NCBI GenBank assembly: GCA_016779705.1
Contig: JADHNB010000003.1
Span: forward strand, 1-46,182
DNA length: 46,182 nt
Direction of reading: 5' to 3'
From: Poseidonia sp.
GTDB lineage: Archaea; Thermoplasmatota; Poseidoniia; Poseidoniales; Poseidoniaceae
A program made the translations under genes and the position numbers. Of the stretch, positions 6,690 through 16,455 are shown in pieces; within the stretch, counting starts at the first letter, position 1, and every line of letters starts with the position of its first letter. The notes under the pieces are model-generated. The model did not search any database. It saw only the letters and a list, made by a program, of their open reading frames with translations, and was not told the DNA's origin.

Positions 6690-7460
6690 TCATCGCAAAC
6701 TGCGCAGCGCTTCTTTGTCAAATTGTGAGACCGCTTGCTGGTAGGCGTCGTTGACGCTGAACCATCGGGCTTCGGAGATTTCTTCTGTCTGCAGCGCCAA
6801 TTCAGACACGTCTCCGTTCCAAGTAGACCGGTAGGTCAAGGAAACGAAGGAGATGCCTTCGTCGTTGAACACACGTTGTGTAATGACCGGTTCCTTGTCG
6901 TCCAGCACGATCTGAAGGCCCAACTCCTCCAGAGTTTCTCTCACGCACCCGATTGAAGGGTGTTCGTTGTGGTCCAAGTAGCCTCCCGGCAAGGTCCAAT
7001 ATCCGTTAAAGTGCCCTCGCTCTACCTTTCCCATCAGCACTTCGCCTGCATCGTTTTGGATCATGACTTTCGCAACCAAACGATGCAGGGAGCGATAGAT
7101 GGCTTCCCTTGCGACGGGGTGAACGTGGTTGTCAGCAATGCAGGCATCCTTCCAAGCCCAGTGCTTGGGCCACTCCATTTTTGGGTAGCCTTTCAGGACG
7201 GTGAATTGAGTTGACCCGAAGGTGATGCGGAGCGTGTCCTTTTCAACGAACTCAAGGTCCATGACCTCGACTTCGTCAACCGTGGGGAATCGTAGGGTGT
7301 TGCTGTTCCCCATCCGGCCGGGTTGAGGGAGTTGGGGTCCAATTCCTTGTTCATCCACCAACAACACCTTTCCGTCGTGTTCCAAATACACGGAGACGGA
7401 AGGGTGCATGCTTCTGCCAAGGCCCCGATTCACATCAATGCTCGTATCAGGATTGGTCAC
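6690..7460 (-). CDS. NUDIX hydrolase with an N-terminal extension of about 110 aa of unknown type
   Basis: Nudix box GGYLDHNEHPSIGCVRETLEELGL matches GX5EX7REUXEEXGU. Its start overlaps the 3' end of rmuC by 14 nt on the same strand. Confidence 0.85.
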   Translation of the reverse strand: MTNPDTSIDVNRGLGRSMHPSVSVYLEHDGKVLLVDEQGIGPQLPQPGRMGNSNTLRFPTVDEVEVMDLEFVEKDTLRITFGSTQFTVLKGYPKMEWPKHWAWKDACIADNHVHPVAREAIYRSLHRLVAKVMIQNDAGEVLMGKVERGHFNGYWTLPGGYLDHNEHPSIGCVRETLEELGLQIVLDDKEPVITQRVFNDEGISFVSLTYRSTWNGDVSELALQTEEISEARWFSVNDAYQQAVSQFDKEALRSLR

Positions 7461-8709
7461 TCGGGAGCAGCGTCACCTCGGACGGCTCGGGGAGTTCTTG
7501 CGTGAGGGTTTCCGAGACTTTCAGTTCGTCCAATCGGCGGCCTTGGGGAAGGACTCGTGATTGGTAGGACCGCATGGTATCGTTGTACGCAAGGGTTGCC
7601 TTGGCGAGGTGCCCGCCCACCTTGTTGTAGTGGTCCACCATCGTGGTGACCCGTTTGTACAATTCTCTCGAGACATCGTAGATCTCTCGTGCACCCTCCG
7701 CAAGGGCGTGTTGTTGCCAGTACAAAGCGACGGTCCGCAACAAGCCGAGCATCGTGACTGGGGTGGTGACCAAGACCGATTTGCTCATGGCATACTCCAT
7801 CAAATCCGGGTCCACGTTGAAAGCAGCGGCGGCCATGGCTTCACTCGGTACGAACATGACCACATGGTCAAAATGACCCTCGATGGCTTCCTGATATGCC
7901 TTGGAACTGAGGTCGGTGATGCGACTTCGCATGCTGCGGGCGTGACGAATGAGCAATTCGTCTTGCTGAGGTCCGGGTTCAAGGGAGACCGCTTCAAGGT
8001 AGGTTCCCCCAACCGCCTTGGAATCGATGGGGATGACGCCTCCCTCCGGGAGAATGACGACAAAGTCGGGGCGGGTGCCGTTGTCCAAGGTCGGCTGTTC
8101 TTTGAAATTCATGTGTTCGGAAAGGCCCGCCATTTCAAACAACCGTCGTAGTTTGACTTCCCCCCAATTGCCTCGGGTCTGACTCGAGGTGGTCAGTGCC
8201 GTGGAAAGCGCCACGGTGCGTGTGGACAACGATTCAGTCTTCTCACCGAGTTCCTTGATGTTTCGTCGCAACCCTTCGTACGCCCCCACTCGTTCTTTCT
8301 CCATCTCGTTGTTTTGGTGTTGGAGTTTGATCAATTCGTCTTGGAGCGGCTTAAGCAGATGCTCAACCTCGGTTTTTCGCTGTTCAAGAGCATGCTCAGC
8401 CTCAAGTTGATTTTTCGACCAACGCTCTTCGGCCAATTTGAGGAAATTGGCCGAATTTTCCTCACTCAGGCGCTTGGAGAGGTTCTCAACCTCAGCTCGG
8501 ATGCGTTGTTCGTTGATGGTTGAGGCCTCTTCGCTGGAGCGGAGGCGCTCCTCGGCCCGTATCAGTTCACCAGCGGTGGACTGTCGAGCCATCACCCATC
8601 CGACCAATCCGCCCAAGACCAATCCAATCAACAACAGGCCGTACTCTGTTAGCCCCACCATGAAATCGTAACGATGGCGACCGTATATGATGAAATCGGG
8701 TTCCGTCAA
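7447..8709 (-). CDS. rmuC: RmuC-family DNA recombination/nuclease protein (N-terminal TM helix, long coiled coil, C-terminal PD-(D/E)xK-like domain)
   Basis: 420 aa with TM helix LLLIGLVLGGLVGWVM, a charged coiled-coil segment of about 150 aa, and a C-terminal region RPDFVVILPEGGVIPIDSKA...MFVPSE characteristic of RmuC. Confidence 0.85.
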   Translation of the reverse strand: MTEPDFIIYGRHRYDFMVGLTEYGLLLIGLVLGGLVGWVMARQSTAGELIRAEERLRSSEEASTINEQRIRAEVENLSKRLSEENSANFLKLAEERWSKNQLEAEHALEQRKTEVEHLLKPLQDELIKLQHQNNEMEKERVGAYEGLRRNIKELGEKTESLSTRTVALSTALTTSSQTRGNWGEVKLRRLFEMAGLSEHMNFKEQPTLDNGTRPDFVVILPEGGVIPIDSKAVGGTYLEAVSLEPGPQQDELLIRHARSMRSRITDLSSKAYQEAIEGHFDHVVMFVPSEAMAAAAFNVDPDLMEYAMSKSVLVTTPVTMLGLLRTVALYWQQHALAEGAREIYDVSRELYKRVTTMVDHYNKVGGHLAKATLAYNDTMRSYQSRVLPQGRRLDELKVSETLTQELPEPSEVTLLPSDQS

Positions 8710-11691: not shown

Positions 11692-11755
11692 CACTTTCAC
11701 TTTCCTGCACGGGGTCTTCCCAAAGCACCTCGTCGTCCTTCGCTCTTCGCTGCTT

Positions 11756-12025
11756 ATGGGTCGAAGCGTTCCTCCATGGCGCACACGCGTTGAAGTTGAA
11801 TTGAACCGTTGGCAGGCTTTCCGTCGTGCCCTCTCCACCTCCGACCAAGCCTCGTTTGAACATCTCCTTGACGACATTCGTCAGCGACGTGCAGCCGGCG
11901 GTATGCTCCCGTCGCTTGATGTTTGGCACCCCGCCGTGCTCAGCATGCTGGTGGGATTGATGTCGCGTCTCGGGGAACTGGAGCGGCGGCTTTGTGCACT
12001 TGAGGAAGGGCATTCGGATGATTGA
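11756..12025 (+). CDS. Small helical hypothetical protein (89 aa), translationally coupled to the downstream family-B polymerase
   Basis: The stop TGA (12023-12025) overlaps the polymerase ATG (12018) in the string ATGATTGA. The sequence looks protein-like (WQAFRRALSTSDQASFEHLLDDIRQRR...LGELERRL). No family was recognised. The start at ATG 11756 is an inference. Confidence 0.45.
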   Translation: MGRSVPPWRTRVEVELNRWQAFRRALSTSDQASFEHLLDDIRQRRAAGGMLPSLDVWHPAVLSMLVGLMSRLGELERRLCALEEGHSDD

Positions 12026-14516
12026 GGGTTGGCTTCTCGATGTTCATGCCAACGACGCGCACACCGGGATGGTGGTTTGGGTCGTTGATGATGCAGGTCG
12101 GGCCGCTCGCTGCGATGTCCCGTGGGCCCCTTCGCTTCATGTCCACGGTTCGTCCGTCGACCTTGAACGGTTGGAAGAATGGCTCCTGTTGCCTGAAATA
12201 GCGGCACGCTTCACCGTGGTTGCCTTGGAACGGCGACGTCTGCATCTTGACTTGGACGGTGCCGATGTGGCTTCGGTTCTCGAAGTACGTCTCGAACCCT
12301 TTCATCATCTCAAAGCGCTGGCCGAGCACATTGAAGCGCGAGGTGATTTCCACCGCTACACCTTGTATTCGGTCGACGCCCACCTCGTTCAGCGTTTTCT
12401 TAACGACCACGGCTGCTCGCCTTTCTCCAGGGTGAGATGGGACCCGAAGACCACGCCCATGATTCGTCCCTTGCGTACGATGGACGAAAACGTCCTGCCT
12501 CCGTTGTGCCTTGTTCGCCTCGCGGTTGAGTTTGCCCCCTCCGCCTTTCCCTCCGTGGCCGATGCGGTGGTGGCCATGCATCTTGAAACGGTTCAGGAAC
12601 CCGGAATCCCAGCCACCCCCCGTAGCGTTCAAAGCACAACCCTGCACCGAGACGATTATCCAACGCTTTCGGCGATGTTGGTCGCCTTTGAAGCGACGCT
12701 CAAGCGCTTGGACCCCGATCTCCTTCTCACCTACGGTGGCGACAAACGCCTGTTTCCATGGTTGGTTCATCAATCAGAAGCGTTGGGGCGTTCACTCGTG
12801 CTCGGACGTTCAGCCACGCCGCTCTCTCTGTCCACCAAGGCTCAAACGGTTCGCTCCTACGGTCATACGAGGCACAGGGACGGGGCGTTTTTCCTTGAGG
12901 GGCGGCTTCATTTGGACCTGCGCAACAGTTTCATCGTCAAGGAAGGGGGAGTTGCGGGGTTGTTTGAGTTGGCACAACAATCGTGCCAATCGGCCCAAGT
13001 CATTTCGCGTCTTTCGCCGGGTTCGGTCATCAGCGCCATTCAGATGCGGGTGGCGATGGACGATGACGTGTTGGTTCCGTGGAAGAAGAACCGTCCAGAA
13101 GACACGAAATCAGCTTTGGAACTTCTGCACGCCGACCGTGGTGGTCTGTACCTTGACAGCCGGCCCGGCGTTTATGCTTCCGTCATTGAATTGGATTTTG
13201 CCAGCCTCTTCCCCAGCATCATCGCCACGCGAAACATATCTCCCGAGACCTTGAATTGCGCTTGCTGTCAGCCGTCGGAGGGTCCGAACACGGCCGGGGT
13301 TGTACCGCTCCATCCGGATGAAGCCACCGCTGAGTTTCGCCAGCGATATCATCGTTCACGATTTGGCCACACGTTGTTCCCTCTCTCGCACGAGAAAGCG
13401 CTCAAAGTTCCCGGCCTCCAAAGCCACACTTGCGGTCGAAGGCACGGCTTTCTCGGCCGTGTGGTTGCGCCCCTCATCGAACGCCGTCGACAACTCAAAG
13501 CGCAGCGATGCGAAAAGGGTGATGCGTTTGACTTGCGGCAAAACGCCCTCAAATGGCACCTCGTGACTTGTTTTGGTTACACGGGTTACCGCAACGCCCG
13601 CTTTGGCCGTATTGAGGCCCACGAAGCGATTTGTGCGTGGTCCAGGGACCTCTTGTTGACCACCATCGAAGAGGCTCAACGCGACGGGTGGGAGGTGCTC
13701 CATGCAATCGTCGATTGTGTTTGGCTCGCCGATCGTTCCAATCGGACGGAAGAACAGCAGCGTGTGGATGCCGAACGTTTCGCACGTCGCATCACGGAGC
13801 AGGTTGGCATTCCTTTGGAATTTGAACAGCATTACGAGTTCATTGCGTTTCTTCCAAGTCGGGTTCACGGGGCAGGTTCGCTCACGAAGTATTGGGCGTA
13901 CGGTGGAGGTGACTACAAAGTCCGGGGCATTGAACTCCGGCAACATTCCACGCCCCCGTGGATTTGTTCCCTCCAAGAGCGCGCCCTCCAGTTGTTGGCG
14001 GCGGGCGAACGGACCAACGGCGTGCCGGATCGCCAGGCTCAGCGAGCGGTGTTTATCTTGTATCAAACCGAACTGCAACGATTGAACGACGGCCAACTTC
14101 CCCCCAAGGACTTGGTCATCTCCCGTCGAATCACCTCTTCTCTCGAGGATTATCGAGTCAAGAACCTCTCGTATGCGGCCTTGCTCCGTGCCCATCATCA
14201 AGGTCATCACGTGCCATCTGGGGGAAAAATTCGCTATGTGGTGGTGGACGCTTCGGCAACGGAACCGCTTGACAGGGTGGTTCTCGCTGAGGAAACAGCG
14301 TTCAAGGAAGCGACGGTGACAGGTTGTCCTCTCCACTACACGCGCCTCGCCGAACGGGCCATTTGGGCGATCCTTGCCCCCTTTGGGTGGACGGACAAGG
14401 ACCTTCGTTCAACGAGTCGACAACCCACGCTTCTCGATTTCGTCATCCCTCGTTCTGAAGGGCATGAGAGCGTGCTGAAGCAGGTACCGAACGCCCCTCG
14501 AATTCACGAGGCGTGA
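12018..14516 (+). CDS. polB: Family-B DNA polymerase with degenerate 3'-5' exonuclease motifs and variant polymerase motifs B and C (PolB2/Dpo2-like?)
   Basis: The N-terminus MIEGWLLDV resembles archaeal PolB MILDxDY. Motif A is intact (LDFASLFPSII). Motif B is KWHLVTCFGYTGY (canonical KxxxNSxYG). Motif C is AIVDCVW (canonical YxDTDS). A KxY-like LTKYWAYG is present. The Exo I position reads LAVEF (canonical FDIET) and the Exo II position reads TYGGDKRLFPWL (canonical YNGDNFDxPYL). Confidence 0.9.
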   Translation: MIEGWLLDVHANDAHTGMVVWVVDDAGRAARCDVPWAPSLHVHGSSVDLERLEEWLLLPEIAARFTVVALERRRLHLDLDGADVASVLEVRLEPFHHLKALAEHIEARGDFHRYTLYSVDAHLVQRFLNDHGCSPFSRVRWDPKTTPMIRPLRTMDENVLPPLCLVRLAVEFAPSAFPSVADAVVAMHLETVQEPGIPATPRSVQSTTLHRDDYPTLSAMLVAFEATLKRLDPDLLLTYGGDKRLFPWLVHQSEALGRSLVLGRSATPLSLSTKAQTVRSYGHTRHRDGAFFLEGRLHLDLRNSFIVKEGGVAGLFELAQQSCQSAQVISRLSPGSVISAIQMRVAMDDDVLVPWKKNRPEDTKSALELLHADRGGLYLDSRPGVYASVIELDFASLFPSIIATRNISPETLNCACCQPSEGPNTAGVVPLHPDEATAEFRQRYHRSRFGHTLFPLSHEKALKVPGLQSHTCGRRHGFLGRVVAPLIERRRQLKAQRCEKGDAFDLRQNALKWHLVTCFGYTGYRNARFGRIEAHEAICAWSRDLLLTTIEEAQRDGWEVLHAIVDCVWLADRSNRTEEQQRVDAERFARRITEQVGIPLEFEQHYEFIAFLPSRVHGAGSLTKYWAYGGGDYKVRGIELRQHSTPPWICSLQERALQLLAAGERTNGVPDRQAQRAVFILYQTELQRLNDGQLPPKDLVISRRITSSLEDYRVKNLSYAALLRAHHQGHHVPSGGKIRYVVVDASATEPLDRVVLAEETAFKEATVTGCPLHYTRLAERAIWAILAPFGWTDKDLRSTSRQPTLLDFVIPRSEGHESVLKQVPNAPRIHEA

Positions 14517-15225
14517 GGGTGAACCGCGTCTGCCTTGGGTCGTGGTTGGCGTTCCAGAGCCCGCGCAACCCGGAACGTGGATGATTGAGGTAGAGGGTTC
14601 GTTTTCGTTGCGTTCCTCGCCAGTGCCCCACAAGGTGGTGATGGGCCTGTCGGTGAACCTGTTGGAGGAGGCGGCGCTGATGAACGGACCGTCCGTGGGC
14701 TTCCGTGATCACGACGACAGCGGCTCGATGATCTTGGGCGATCCGGGACAGCAAGGCGACGTGGCGCCGGAGCAAGGTCCTCGATTCAAGACGCTTGATG
14801 GCCTCGTCTTCATGCATGGCCAGCAAACCGTCAACCACGAGCAACGGGGAACGGGTAATCTCCAATTCGTTGGGTAAACGTTCCAGTTGCCGGTCCAGTT
14901 GGTGCAAGGTGAATCCGCGACTCAAGTACAAACGAGAAAGACAGGCCTCCGTATCGGCTCCCAACGATGCGAGGGTTGGGAGGAGCCGAGCGGGGTCAAT
15001 TCTGCAGGCTCCGTCCACCCAATGCACGGTTTCACCGTGGACCAACGCTTCGGCCACCCAGTGTTCGGCGACGGGTCGCATGCTCTTCCCAGCACGACCC
15101 GGCCCGGTGAGGTGGTAAACAAGGCCCGGCTCAGGTCGCAGCAAATCCATGTCAAACCCCTCGTGCTGCTGACGAAGAAGCGGGGCCAAAGGTCGTGGTT
15201 GATTTTGAGAGTCCATGTCAATCAT
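14443..15225 (-). CDS. RecA-superfamily ATPase, RadB-like (RadA paralog) / ImuA-like
   Basis: 260 aa. Walker A is LTGPGRAGKS and Walker B-like is PLLVVDGL. The blocks VHWVDGACRIDPARL, LSRLYLSRGF and LLSRIAQDHRAAVVVITE are collinear with euryarchaeal RadB blocks as I recall them (V.YVDTEG.FSPERL, LSRF.., VVVDS, L..IA....IPV.V.NQ). The 3' end overlaps polB by 74 nt in convergent orientation. Confidence 0.7.
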   Translation of the reverse strand: MIDMDSQNQPRPLAPLLRQQHEGFDMDLLRPEPGLVYHLTGPGRAGKSMRPVAEHWVAEALVHGETVHWVDGACRIDPARLLPTLASLGADTEACLSRLYLSRGFTLHQLDRQLERLPNELEITRSPLLVVDGLLAMHEDEAIKRLESRTLLRRHVALLSRIAQDHRAAVVVITEAHGRSVHQRRLLQQVHRQAHHHLVGHWRGTQRKRTLYLNHPRSGLRGLWNANHDPRQTRFTLTPREFEGRSVPASARSHALQNEG

Positions 15226-15345
15226 TGGAGGTCCCCCACGTCAGCCATCAATCCTTTTGAACACCCCTTGCTTGAAGTGAAAGCCATCAAGTTCAAACAC
15301 CGTTGCCCCCGAAAATTGGGTGTGGATGCTTCCGTCGCCGATGAT

Positions 15346-16455
15346 GTGGATGTGTCTCAACGCATCCTGATCCACTGCGATTTGGATGCGTTTTTCGCTG
15401 CCGTGGAAACCTTGCACCACGGGCTGGACGAAAGCGTACCGCTGATCATCGGCTCCGACCCAAAGCAGGGTCGCGGGCGAGGCATCGTTTCCACGTGCAA
15501 TTACGCCGCCCGTCAATACGGCGTCCGTTCGGCGATGCCGATTTCCGAAGCGTGGCGTCGTTGTCCGGGAGCCCCGTTTGGTCATGCCCGTTACATCCGA
15601 GGGACGCGTGGCTTGTACACTCGGGCCAGTCGGCGAGTGATGGCGATCTTGAAAGCCCATGCAACGGCCTTTGAACAGGCCAGCATCGATGAGGCTTACC
15701 TCGACGTGACCGAGGCGGTCAACGGTGATTGGGATCTGGCGTTGGCGTTGACGAAAAGCTTGCAGCATGACATCGTTGAGGCGTTGGGCCTAACCGCCTC
15801 GTTTGGATTGGGGCCCACTCGAATCATTGCCAAAATGAGCAGCGAGGTGAACAAACCAAACGGCGTTCATCGCGTGCTTCCCGATGAGGTTGAGGCCTTC
15901 TTTGAAGGTCGTTCTCTTCGAGAAATTCCAGGCATCGGTCCCAAGCGGGCGACCCAACTCGCCGAATGGGGGTACACGACCGCTGATGAGTTGCGGGCCC
16001 TGGGGGAACTGTCCCTCGCACGCTTGGCCGGTGAGCGGTTTGCCAGCTGGTTCATGGAGGTGGTCGAAGGCGAAAGCAGTCGGGTCGTCAGTCCATTGAG
16101 GAGTCGAAAGTCCATTGGCAAAGAGCACACCTTTGAGCGGGATTTGGACGACCATGAATACGTGCTCGACCGGTTGGAGGAGCTGGTTGAGTTGGTCATG
16201 AACCGAGCGTCTGAGTTGGGCGTTTCAGGTCGACTGGCGGAGGTGAAGGTTCGGTACACAGGATTTGAGACCCATGCCTCAGGTCGTAGTATACCGGTCG
16301 CCATGGACGACCCAGCTGTGTTCAAGCGACTGGCGAGAACGCTGTTTGCCAACACCATTGACACGGAAAAATCCGTCCGTTTGATCGGGTTTCGTTTGGG
16401 GCATCTCGAAGAACCGTCTTCCCGACAAACCACCCTCTTCAAGGAAGAGGAATGA
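15346..16455 (+). CDS. dinB: Y-family DNA polymerase IV (DinB/Dpo4)
   Basis: Contains ILIHCDLDAFFAAVE, the intact catalytic motif SIDEAYLDVT, and the HhH string REIPGIGPKRATQL. No ATG lies near the conserved N-terminus, so I propose a GTG start at 15346 (alternative GTG 15352). The ORF-track start 14887 (TTG) runs antisense through the RadB-like gene and is rejected. Confidence 0.88.
   Translation: MDVSQRILIHCDLDAFFAAVETLHHGLDESVPLIIGSDPKQGRGRGIVSTCNYAARQYGVRSAMPISEAWRRCPGAPFGHARYIRGTRGLYTRASRRVMAILKAHATAFEQASIDEAYLDVTEAVNGDWDLALALTKSLQHDIVEALGLTASFGLGPTRIIAKMSSEVNKPNGVHRVLPDEVEAFFEGRSLREIPGIGPKRATQLAEWGYTTADELRALGELSLARLAGERFASWFMEVVEGESSRVVSPLRSRKSIGKEHTFERDLDDHEYVLDRLEELVELVMNRASELGVSGRLAEVKVRYTGFETHASGRSIPVAMDDPAVFKRLARTLFANTIDTEKSVRLIGFRLGHLEEPSSRQTTLFKEEE

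Follow-up and report, generated by a model that had tools for sequence, protein, structure and literature searches.

A Very Probable PolB2 Mutasome with a Convergent iRadA Gene in the Marine Group IIa Archaeon Poseidonia

Identity of the Locus

A 46,182-nt stretch of DNA from Poseidonia (Marine Group IIa; ~55% GC), referred to below as the 46-kb window, carries between positions 11,756 and 16,455 four genes, encoding a small protein, a family-B DNA polymerase, a RecA-fold protein and the Y-family polymerase DinB. The first three very probably make up the archaeal PolB2 mutasome, which consists of the polymerase PolB2, its small partner PPB2 and the inactivated RadA paralog iRadA; here PPB2 and PolB2 follow each other on the forward strand, iRadA converges on them from the reverse strand, and the ordinary DinB of the lineage lies beside them. 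The mechanism of this unit is read by homology. An initial annotation had proposed a damage-tolerance or mutagenesis cassette of four genes, an arrangement that it did not know to have been described as a unit. All four open reading frames (ORFs) are indeed in place, and the same block is present on contig JALRLR010000001.1 of a metagenome-assembled genome (MAG) in GTDB, where the proteins are 95–98% identical to those of the window. The core appears, by its homology to Dpo2, to be a damage-tolerance and mutagenesis module as proposed; the unit, however, has three genes, not four, and has already been described, this genus included. Three annotations are thereby corrected in an abundant, uncultivated ocean archaeon, whose orphan ORF, RadB-like ATPase and exonuclease-dead PolB are subunits of a known translesion complex.

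PolB2, a protein of ~90 aa (arCOG07300) and an inactivated radA were linked by Makarova and Koonin (2013) and likewise by Makarova et al. (2014; PMC4104785), so that the trio has been known as a unit since 2013–2014. In the original comparative-genomics reading, PolB2 was inactivated and the complex took part in replication initiation or its control. The partners were renamed PPB2 and iRadA by Timinskas, Timinskas and Venclovas (2025; PMC11791011), who surveyed 1823 operons and modeled a PolB2:iRadA:PPB2(3) heteropentameric mutasome, likened to Pol V. In the supplementary data of that study, operons of Poseidoniales and Poseidonia sp. are assigned to group 3b with the order PPB2-PolB2-iRadA, and an AF-Multimer model of the Poseidonia sp. 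ortholog has a ranking score of 0.83. A homolog of this polymerase is Dpo2 of Sulfolobus, which is damage-induced, has no proofreading and extends mispaired termini (PMC8764526, PMC7390963, PMC6061795). As a polymerase Dpo2 is active; it inserts poorly, extends mispaired ends efficiently, and cooperates sequentially with Dpo4.

When the window is set against the published group 3b, as far as it is described in the text of that study, each of the three components is found with the motifs that define it, the order is PPB2-PolB2-iRadA, and nothing essential differs. Compared with single published family members, PolB2 shows 56% identity over 399 residues to that of Poseidonia sp. (MBL6742771), PPB2 shows 49%, and iRadA shows 42% to one from Poseidoniales; the match of iRadA labeled P0173 begins with the same residues as MBL6742772. 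The differences are in the arrangement and in details. iRadA is usually encoded on the same strand in the published operons, whereas it is convergent here, with a conserved tail-to-tail ORF overlap; the window iRadA keeps a consensus P-loop; a tandem-hexamer module is shared by the two transcription units; and no orc1/cdc6 gene is nearby. With respect to Dpo2 of S. islandicus (beside SiRe_0614/0615), PolB2 is 31% identical across the catalytic core (E 2e-30), with D373-R374 aligned to D253-K254 and I564-V565-D566 to IID401-403 of Dpo2. The DK/DR and IID/IVD motifs, the want of a proofreading site, the PPB2 and iRadA partners and a promoter hexamer that fits ANTTTC are common to both. In contrast, the S. 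islandicus enzyme is much shorter, has a more decayed N-terminal/exonuclease region, is without the ~46-aa insertion between motifs A and B, belongs to operon group 3a, and is the only one of the two for which damage induction through Orc1-2 has been shown experimentally.

PPB2, the small helical partner of PolB2, is encoded at 11756–12025 on the forward strand (89 aa; arCOG07300/DUF8156). Its stop codon overlaps the ATG of the polymerase (12018) within ATGATTGA, and the same 8-nt overlap geometry recurs at orthologous loci; PPB2 and PolB2 are translationally coupled. This overlap had been recognized from the start, whereas the label of an orphan cannot be kept, as all 46 PPB2 homologs carry PF26485 (DUF8156) in precomputed matches on orthologs. 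PPB2 and three orthologs gave no match in a local Pfam copy, which has no DUF8156 model. In 24 sequences, the N-terminus MGRSVPPWR is invariant at M1–P6 and W8, and P7 and R9 are kept in at least 90%; this MGRS arm with R3 and R9 corresponds to the "MGRT" arm with Arg3 and Arg9 given for PPB2 in the 2025 study. An AlphaFold2 (AF2) model of PPB2 (pLDDT 76) is helical with a free N-terminal arm.

Conservation of the Trio and the Standing of DinB

The window was compared with 49 related loci (L001–L049), comprising Poseidoniaceae-type loci and seven loci of three other contexts. Synteny in the Poseidoniaceae-type loci extends over a whole neighborhood of eight genes: membrane protein, 2-hydroxyacid dehydrogenase, PPB2, PolB2, iRadA, DinB, class-I aminoacyl-tRNA synthetase and MMPL transporter. 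In the other contexts, the trio lies beside an AsnC-type regulator and a cytochrome oxidase operon (L038–40), between M28 peptidases (L041, L042, L048), or beside PRC and metallo-beta-lactamase genes (L049). PPB2, PolB2 and a convergent iRadA are intact in 7/7 of these loci, and adjacency of the trio is kept across four genomic contexts, with iRadA on the opposite strand in every one.

DinB, a Y-family polymerase of the Pol IV type (15322–16455, forward strand), begins probably at the GTG at 15322, with in-frame candidates at 15316–15352. It matches PF00817 (1e-35) and PF11799 (3e-20), reaches 270.8 against a cutoff of 256 with the NCBIfam Pol IV model PRK02406, and keeps the DLD and SIDEAYLD motifs. 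The intact catalytic motifs and the divergent orientation agree with the initial annotation; the spacer between iRadA and DinB, given there as about 120 nt, measures 96 nt to the first GTG and ~90–126 nt over all start candidates. The general Pol IV model PRK02406 is the best one for this protein (2e-80), far above PRK01216 (1e-42), which we take to be a Dpo4-type model. At the C-terminus (16426–16455; L001–L046) is a conserved RQ(T/S/A)TLF(E)EEE peptide, closer to the bacterial QLxLF type of clamp-binding motif than to the archaeal QxxLxxFF type.

DinB had been counted as the fourth member of a cassette, in which it would act as inserter and PolB2 as extender, the two co-regulated from a bidirectional damage-responsive spacer. 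This four-gene reading, the best placed of the alternatives, is unlikely. On its side, DinB adjoins iRadA divergently in each of the 40 Poseidoniaceae-type loci long enough to include it, and in the published table IMS neighbors occur in 56 of 1823 operons, with 46 of them among the 95 of group 3b (PMC11791011). The same table, however, gives for group 3b the neighbors 2-Hacid_dh_C (45), tRNA-synt_1 (42) and Lactamase_B (32) (PMC11791011), and in the loci compared here adjacency of DinB is seen only where the housekeeping flanks (2-hydroxyacid dehydrogenase, class-I aminoacyl-tRNA synthetase, MMPL) are syntenic as well. Since all eight genes of the neighborhood are syntenic within Poseidoniaceae, adjacency there is uninformative on DinB, and in 7/7 loci of the three other contexts, where the convergent trio persists, DinB is absent within 8 kb. 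The neighborhood survey, which had been set beforehand as the test of the cassette, supports the trio in four contexts and DinB in one. As a more general point, adjacency within one family of MAGs can give the appearance of a functional cassette if the neighborhood is syntenic as a whole.

The rates of divergence go in the same direction. Across syntenic loci, the mean identity to the window is 60% for PPB2, 64% for PolB2, 55% for iRadA and 77% for DinB, against 76–84% for the flanking genes; in its pace of divergence DinB matches the flanks, not the trio, and is in this respect, too, a neighbor. DinB is a lineage-specific syntenic neighbor and not a conserved part of the unit. All three mutasome proteins diverge markedly faster than every neighbor gene (55–64% versus 76–84%; L002–L047 against the window).

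A Shared Upstream Module

The PPB2-PolB2 transcription unit is preceded by a promoter module at 11693–11728 (forward strand), which ends 28 nt before the ATG of PPB2 and consists of the tandem hexamer ACTTTC-ACTTTC (11693–11704), GGGGTCT (11711–11717) and the TATA-like AAAGCAC (11722–11728). A module of the same architecture lies at a similar distance from the start codon of iRadA (15250–15283, reverse strand), with CTTTCACTTCAA, GGGGTGT and the TATA-like AAAAGGAT. Equivalents of these two sites are found in L001–L037 and L043–L047, and partly in L041 and L048. In 34 distinct Poseidoniaceae sequences, the footprint upstream of PPB2 reads TAGcACTTTCAcTTTcaa.....GGGTCTtg.atAAgCAt, and in 38 distinct sequences the consensus upstream of iRadA reads g.TTCAgTTCAa..gAGGGGTcTtc..AAggAt.GAtGaC; in the window, L001 and L043–45, the iRadA version is CTTTCACTT(T)CA, identical to the PPB2 version. 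Outside Poseidoniaceae, tandem hexamers of a similar kind precede both genes in L041/L048, a lineage of low GC; in L038 and L049 the module is weak or absent.

The two upstream regions of the window align at 21 of 26 positions, a score reached by none of 1904 control 96-nt windows and by 2 of 5000 shuffles. The exact 12-mer of PPB2 occurs once in the 46-kb window, and a composite regular expression matches in the window only at the PPB2 and iRadA sites and, in 832 kb of loci, almost only at equivalent positions. Counted with mismatches inside the window, the box showed no enrichment over shuffles, and the support for the module comes from its cross-species conservation and the pairwise alignment, not from in-window counts. 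The module is absent from the DinB-facing side of the spacer and from the flanking genes; read toward DinB, the spacer scores 11 against the mutasome module, which is background, versus 25. Because both units carry the same tandem-hexamer/GGGT/TATA-like module, the two transcription units of the mutasome are probably co-regulated by one factor, and this factor may respond to DNA damage. In the literature consulted, as far as could be found, neither the promoter module nor the conserved tail-to-tail overlap of PolB2 and iRadA has been described; the module offers a concrete starting point from which a DNA-damage regulon of Marine Group II could be defined, and the conserved 3′ overlap a second one.

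On the other side of the spacer, a conserved block, ATCAAGTTCAAACACC (15286–15301, forward strand), ends 21 nt before the GTG of DinB; nearly every spacer sequence has it in the form GGTGTTTGAACTTGAT (minus sense). Judging from its position, it is probably a core promoter with a transcription factor B recognition element (BRE) and TATA box, giving a leaderless or near-leaderless mRNA. In addition, ATCAAGTTCAAACACC repeats part of the iRadA box TTCAGTTCAA in inverted orientation.

These data bear again on the four-gene reading. In its favor, the iRadA box lies only ~40–70 nt from the start of DinB, on the other strand, the DinB-side block with its partial inverted repeat contains one AGTTCA unit, and in Sulfolobus Dpo4 and Dpo2 act sequentially in vitro. 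Against it, the background score of the DinB-ward spacer gives DinB no share in the module, and the Y-family polymerase of S. islandicus is not damage-induced. A fuller version can be put together from the known regulation in Sulfolobales, where the damage element 5′-ANTTTC-3′, situated at −23 to −55, is bound by Orc1-2 and the induction of dpo2 is Orc1-2-dependent. In the window, ACTTTC, which fits ANTTTC, stands twice at −63 to −52 before PPB2, and CTTTCACTTC or GTTCAGTTCAA precedes iRadA. The resemblance gives a lead, though a 6-mer match is weak when taken alone; no orc1/cdc6 gene was found in the 46-kb window. It is doubtful that all parts of this version would hold together, namely that the box is an Orc1-2-type damage element, that the bidirectional spacer of Poseidoniaceae co-induces DinB and the PolB2 complex on ultraviolet exposure in surface waters, and that the 3′ overlap balances the stoichiometry of the subunits. 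If it were true, an ANTTTC-type damage regulon would extend to marine Thermoplasmatota.

PolB2, a Family-B Polymerase Without Proofreading

PolB2 (12018–14516, forward strand; 832 aa) matches PF00136, NF004418 and NF004416 and is a polymerase of the Dpo2 type. Motif A, ELDFASLFPS, keeps its Asp (D393), and is preceded by the D-R motif D373-R374. Motif C is I564-V565-D566 (13707–13715), in which D566 is kept. The retention of the motif A Asp and of one motif C Asp, noticed in the initial annotation, is confirmed. Its further statement that every exonuclease carboxylate is lost holds at the level of residues for Exo II only. In an alignment with the KOD polymerase, Exo II changes from NGDNFD to GGDKRL, and motif C from DTD to IVD, while motif A is intact, and these traits recur in 113–117 of 117 homologs; the Exo I and Exo III regions are unalignable, since neither a single-sequence nor a profile search against PDB aligned the N-terminus of PolB2. 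The candidate Exo I stretch varies among orthologs, and Exo I and Exo III would be consistent with decay.

The loss of the first Asp of motif C and of exonuclease residues invites the view that PolB2 has become a relic without catalysis that serves a structural or regulatory purpose, such as the initiation of replication or the control of that step, and the original comparative-genomics reading had in fact predicted inactivation. This view is very hard to hold in the face of two lines of evidence. First, the Dpo2 enzymes of S. islandicus and S. solfataricus have an IID-type motif C and yet are robust polymerases required for targeted mutagenesis. Second, across 117 PolB2 homologs invariance extends over motif A, the Lys of motif B and the palm and finger residues around them, ELDFASLFPS being found in 113/117 and the IVD of motif C likewise in 113/117; this points to selection on the active site. 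The reading of PolB2 as an active polymerase of the mutasome is preferred below.

Two further segments of PolB2 concern its partners. In L352–G376, 17 positions are invariant in 18 diverse homologs (L352, P354–R359, E361–K364, A366, L369, D373–G376), and the segment before the D(K/R) motif is the one modeled as iRadA-binding in the 2025 study (PMC11791011). Near the C-terminus is a PIP-like peptide, Q802PTLLDF808 (14421–14441), in which L805 is invariant and F808 is kept in more than 90%. In the alignment with KOD PolB, this peptide falls on the C-terminal region, the site of the PCNA-binding motif (PIP) of that enzyme.

The PolB2 of this clade has an insertion of ~46 aa between motifs A and B (residues ~417–471, 13266–13430) when compared with KOD PolB and with Dpo2 of S. 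islandicus. The loop in which it lies is flanked by conserved Cys residues (C417...C472), and the insertion contains conserved stretches of its own: (F/V)VPLHP.EA..EF, RFGH.LFP and KAL.VPGL.

iRadA, a RecA-Fold Protein Converging on PolB2

iRadA (14443–15225, reverse strand; 260 aa) is an inactivated paralog of RadA, encoded convergently with PolB2. In domain searches it matches Rad51/RadB weakly: the RadB model TIGR02237 gives E 2e-5 and 24.6 bits against a cutoff of 172.4, and PDB 2cvf gives E 8e-5. The core of its AF2 model (pLDDT 81) matches the ATPase domains of RadA, Rad51 and DMC1 at E ~1e-11; residues 1–21 are disordered, there is no N-terminal domain, and the P-loop strand begins near residue 36. 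The initial annotation was right that the Walker A sequence GPGRAGKS aligns with the P-loop of RadB (GPYASGKT in T. kodakarensis) and that the gene converges on the polymerase, and it erred in the identity of the protein as RadB or ImuA. At the position of the catalytic Glu of RadB/RadA (DTE) iRadA has Ala, within HW[VI]DGAC in 60/64 sequences. Many close orthologs have R, S, A, G or D in place of the P-loop Lys, and for this reason the P-loop does not appear to be under the selection expected of an active ATPase. That the protein is instead the housekeeping RadB of the lineage with variable neighbors, or an ImuA analog, adjoining the polymerase by chance is hardly credible: TIGR02237 and 2cvf among the best named matches, the want of an N-terminal domain, as in RadB, and the consensus Walker A would suit a RadB, but the score is far under the RadB cutoff, the catalytic Glu has become Ala in the great majority of orthologs and the P-loop Lys is lost from many, the gene stands always beside PolB2 in four unrelated contexts, and the protein is orthologous to those published as iRadA in the 2025 study.

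The reading frames of PolB2 and iRadA overlap tail to tail by 74 nt (14443–14516). Such an overlap is present in 45/49 loci, with a median of 62 nt and a range of −49 to 167 nt. The two mRNAs would be antisense to each other at their 3′ ends if transcription passes both stops. On the PolB2 side the overlap spans the variable tail past the PIP-like motif; on the iRadA side it spans the C-terminus, in which one Leu is invariant.

Several observations weigh against the assignment of the locus to a PolB2 mutasome transcribed under common control. iRadA is on the opposite strand from PPB2-PolB2, so that the trio is no operon in the strict sense. The window iRadA keeps the consensus Walker A and the Walker B Asp, with which it may bind nucleotide. 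A Foldseek search with the PPB2 monomer model returned nothing significant, and the reported sigma-factor-like fold was not reproduced. A relaxed regular expression applied to the non-syntenic loci found both promoters in L041, one in L048 and none in L038 and L049, and it is from sequence conservation that the shared module would link the two transcription units.

Proposed Mode of Action and Relation to Known Systems

By homology with S. islandicus Dpo2, PolB2 would be a proofreading-deficient translesion polymerase that mainly extends mispaired or lesion-opposed primer ends. It is predicted to work while assembled with a single iRadA and a trimer of PPB2, as in the modeled mutasome. In this complex, iRadA would be held by the beta-alpha segment before D373-R374 of PolB2, which would mimic RadA oligomerization, and the MGRS arm of PPB2 would be inserted between PolB2 and iRadA near the DNA. 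Contact with the clamp in this clade would be made most likely by the C-terminal QPTLLDF peptide of PolB2. iRadA would be transcribed separately, from the opposite strand. DinB, under its own promoter block, may cooperate biochemically as an inserter polymerase that hands primer ends over to PolB2.

Three other systems can be compared. First, E. coli Pol V (UmuD′2C-RecA) and the bacterial ImuA-ImuB-DnaE2 complex follow the same logic, with an error-tolerant polymerase, a RecA-family protein, a small subunit and clamp binding; their polymerases, however, are of families Y and C versus B here, and the catalytic subunits are not homologous. The parallel with imuA-imuB-dnaE2 drawn in the initial annotation is apt as an analogy and fails as a matter of membership: the polymerase here belongs to family B, and whereas ImuB is a dead Y-family protein, DinB keeps its catalytic residues and stands outside the conserved unit. 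Second, eukaryotic Pol zeta (Rev3-Rev7-Pol31-Pol32) is likewise a multisubunit family-B polymerase with an inactive exonuclease, acting as extender in two-polymerase bypass; its accessory subunits are unrelated, and it has no RadA-like subunit.

Other Features of the Neighborhood

Genes for a NUDIX hydrolase and an RmuC-family (DNA recombination) protein lie at 6690–8709 on the reverse strand, 3–5 kb upstream of the mutasome. No RmuC match is listed in the 8-kb flanks of L043 and L046, and this neighborhood is variable for that reason. In the same two loci, the Lactamase_B gene is followed downstream by a Peptidase_S8 gene, which separates it from the membrane-protein gene. A casposon or other mobile-element origin was considered and dropped, as neither Cas1 nor an integrase nor repeats of the kind found in such elements are present in the window; an integrase is present ~6 kb upstream in L038–40 and is not conserved. 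Finally, locus L027 (NZEQ01000045.1), from a MAG labeled Verrucomicrobiales bacterium, bears a PolB2-iRadA-DinB-aminoacyl-tRNA synthetase-MMPL block of Poseidoniaceae, which is most likely a binning contaminant.

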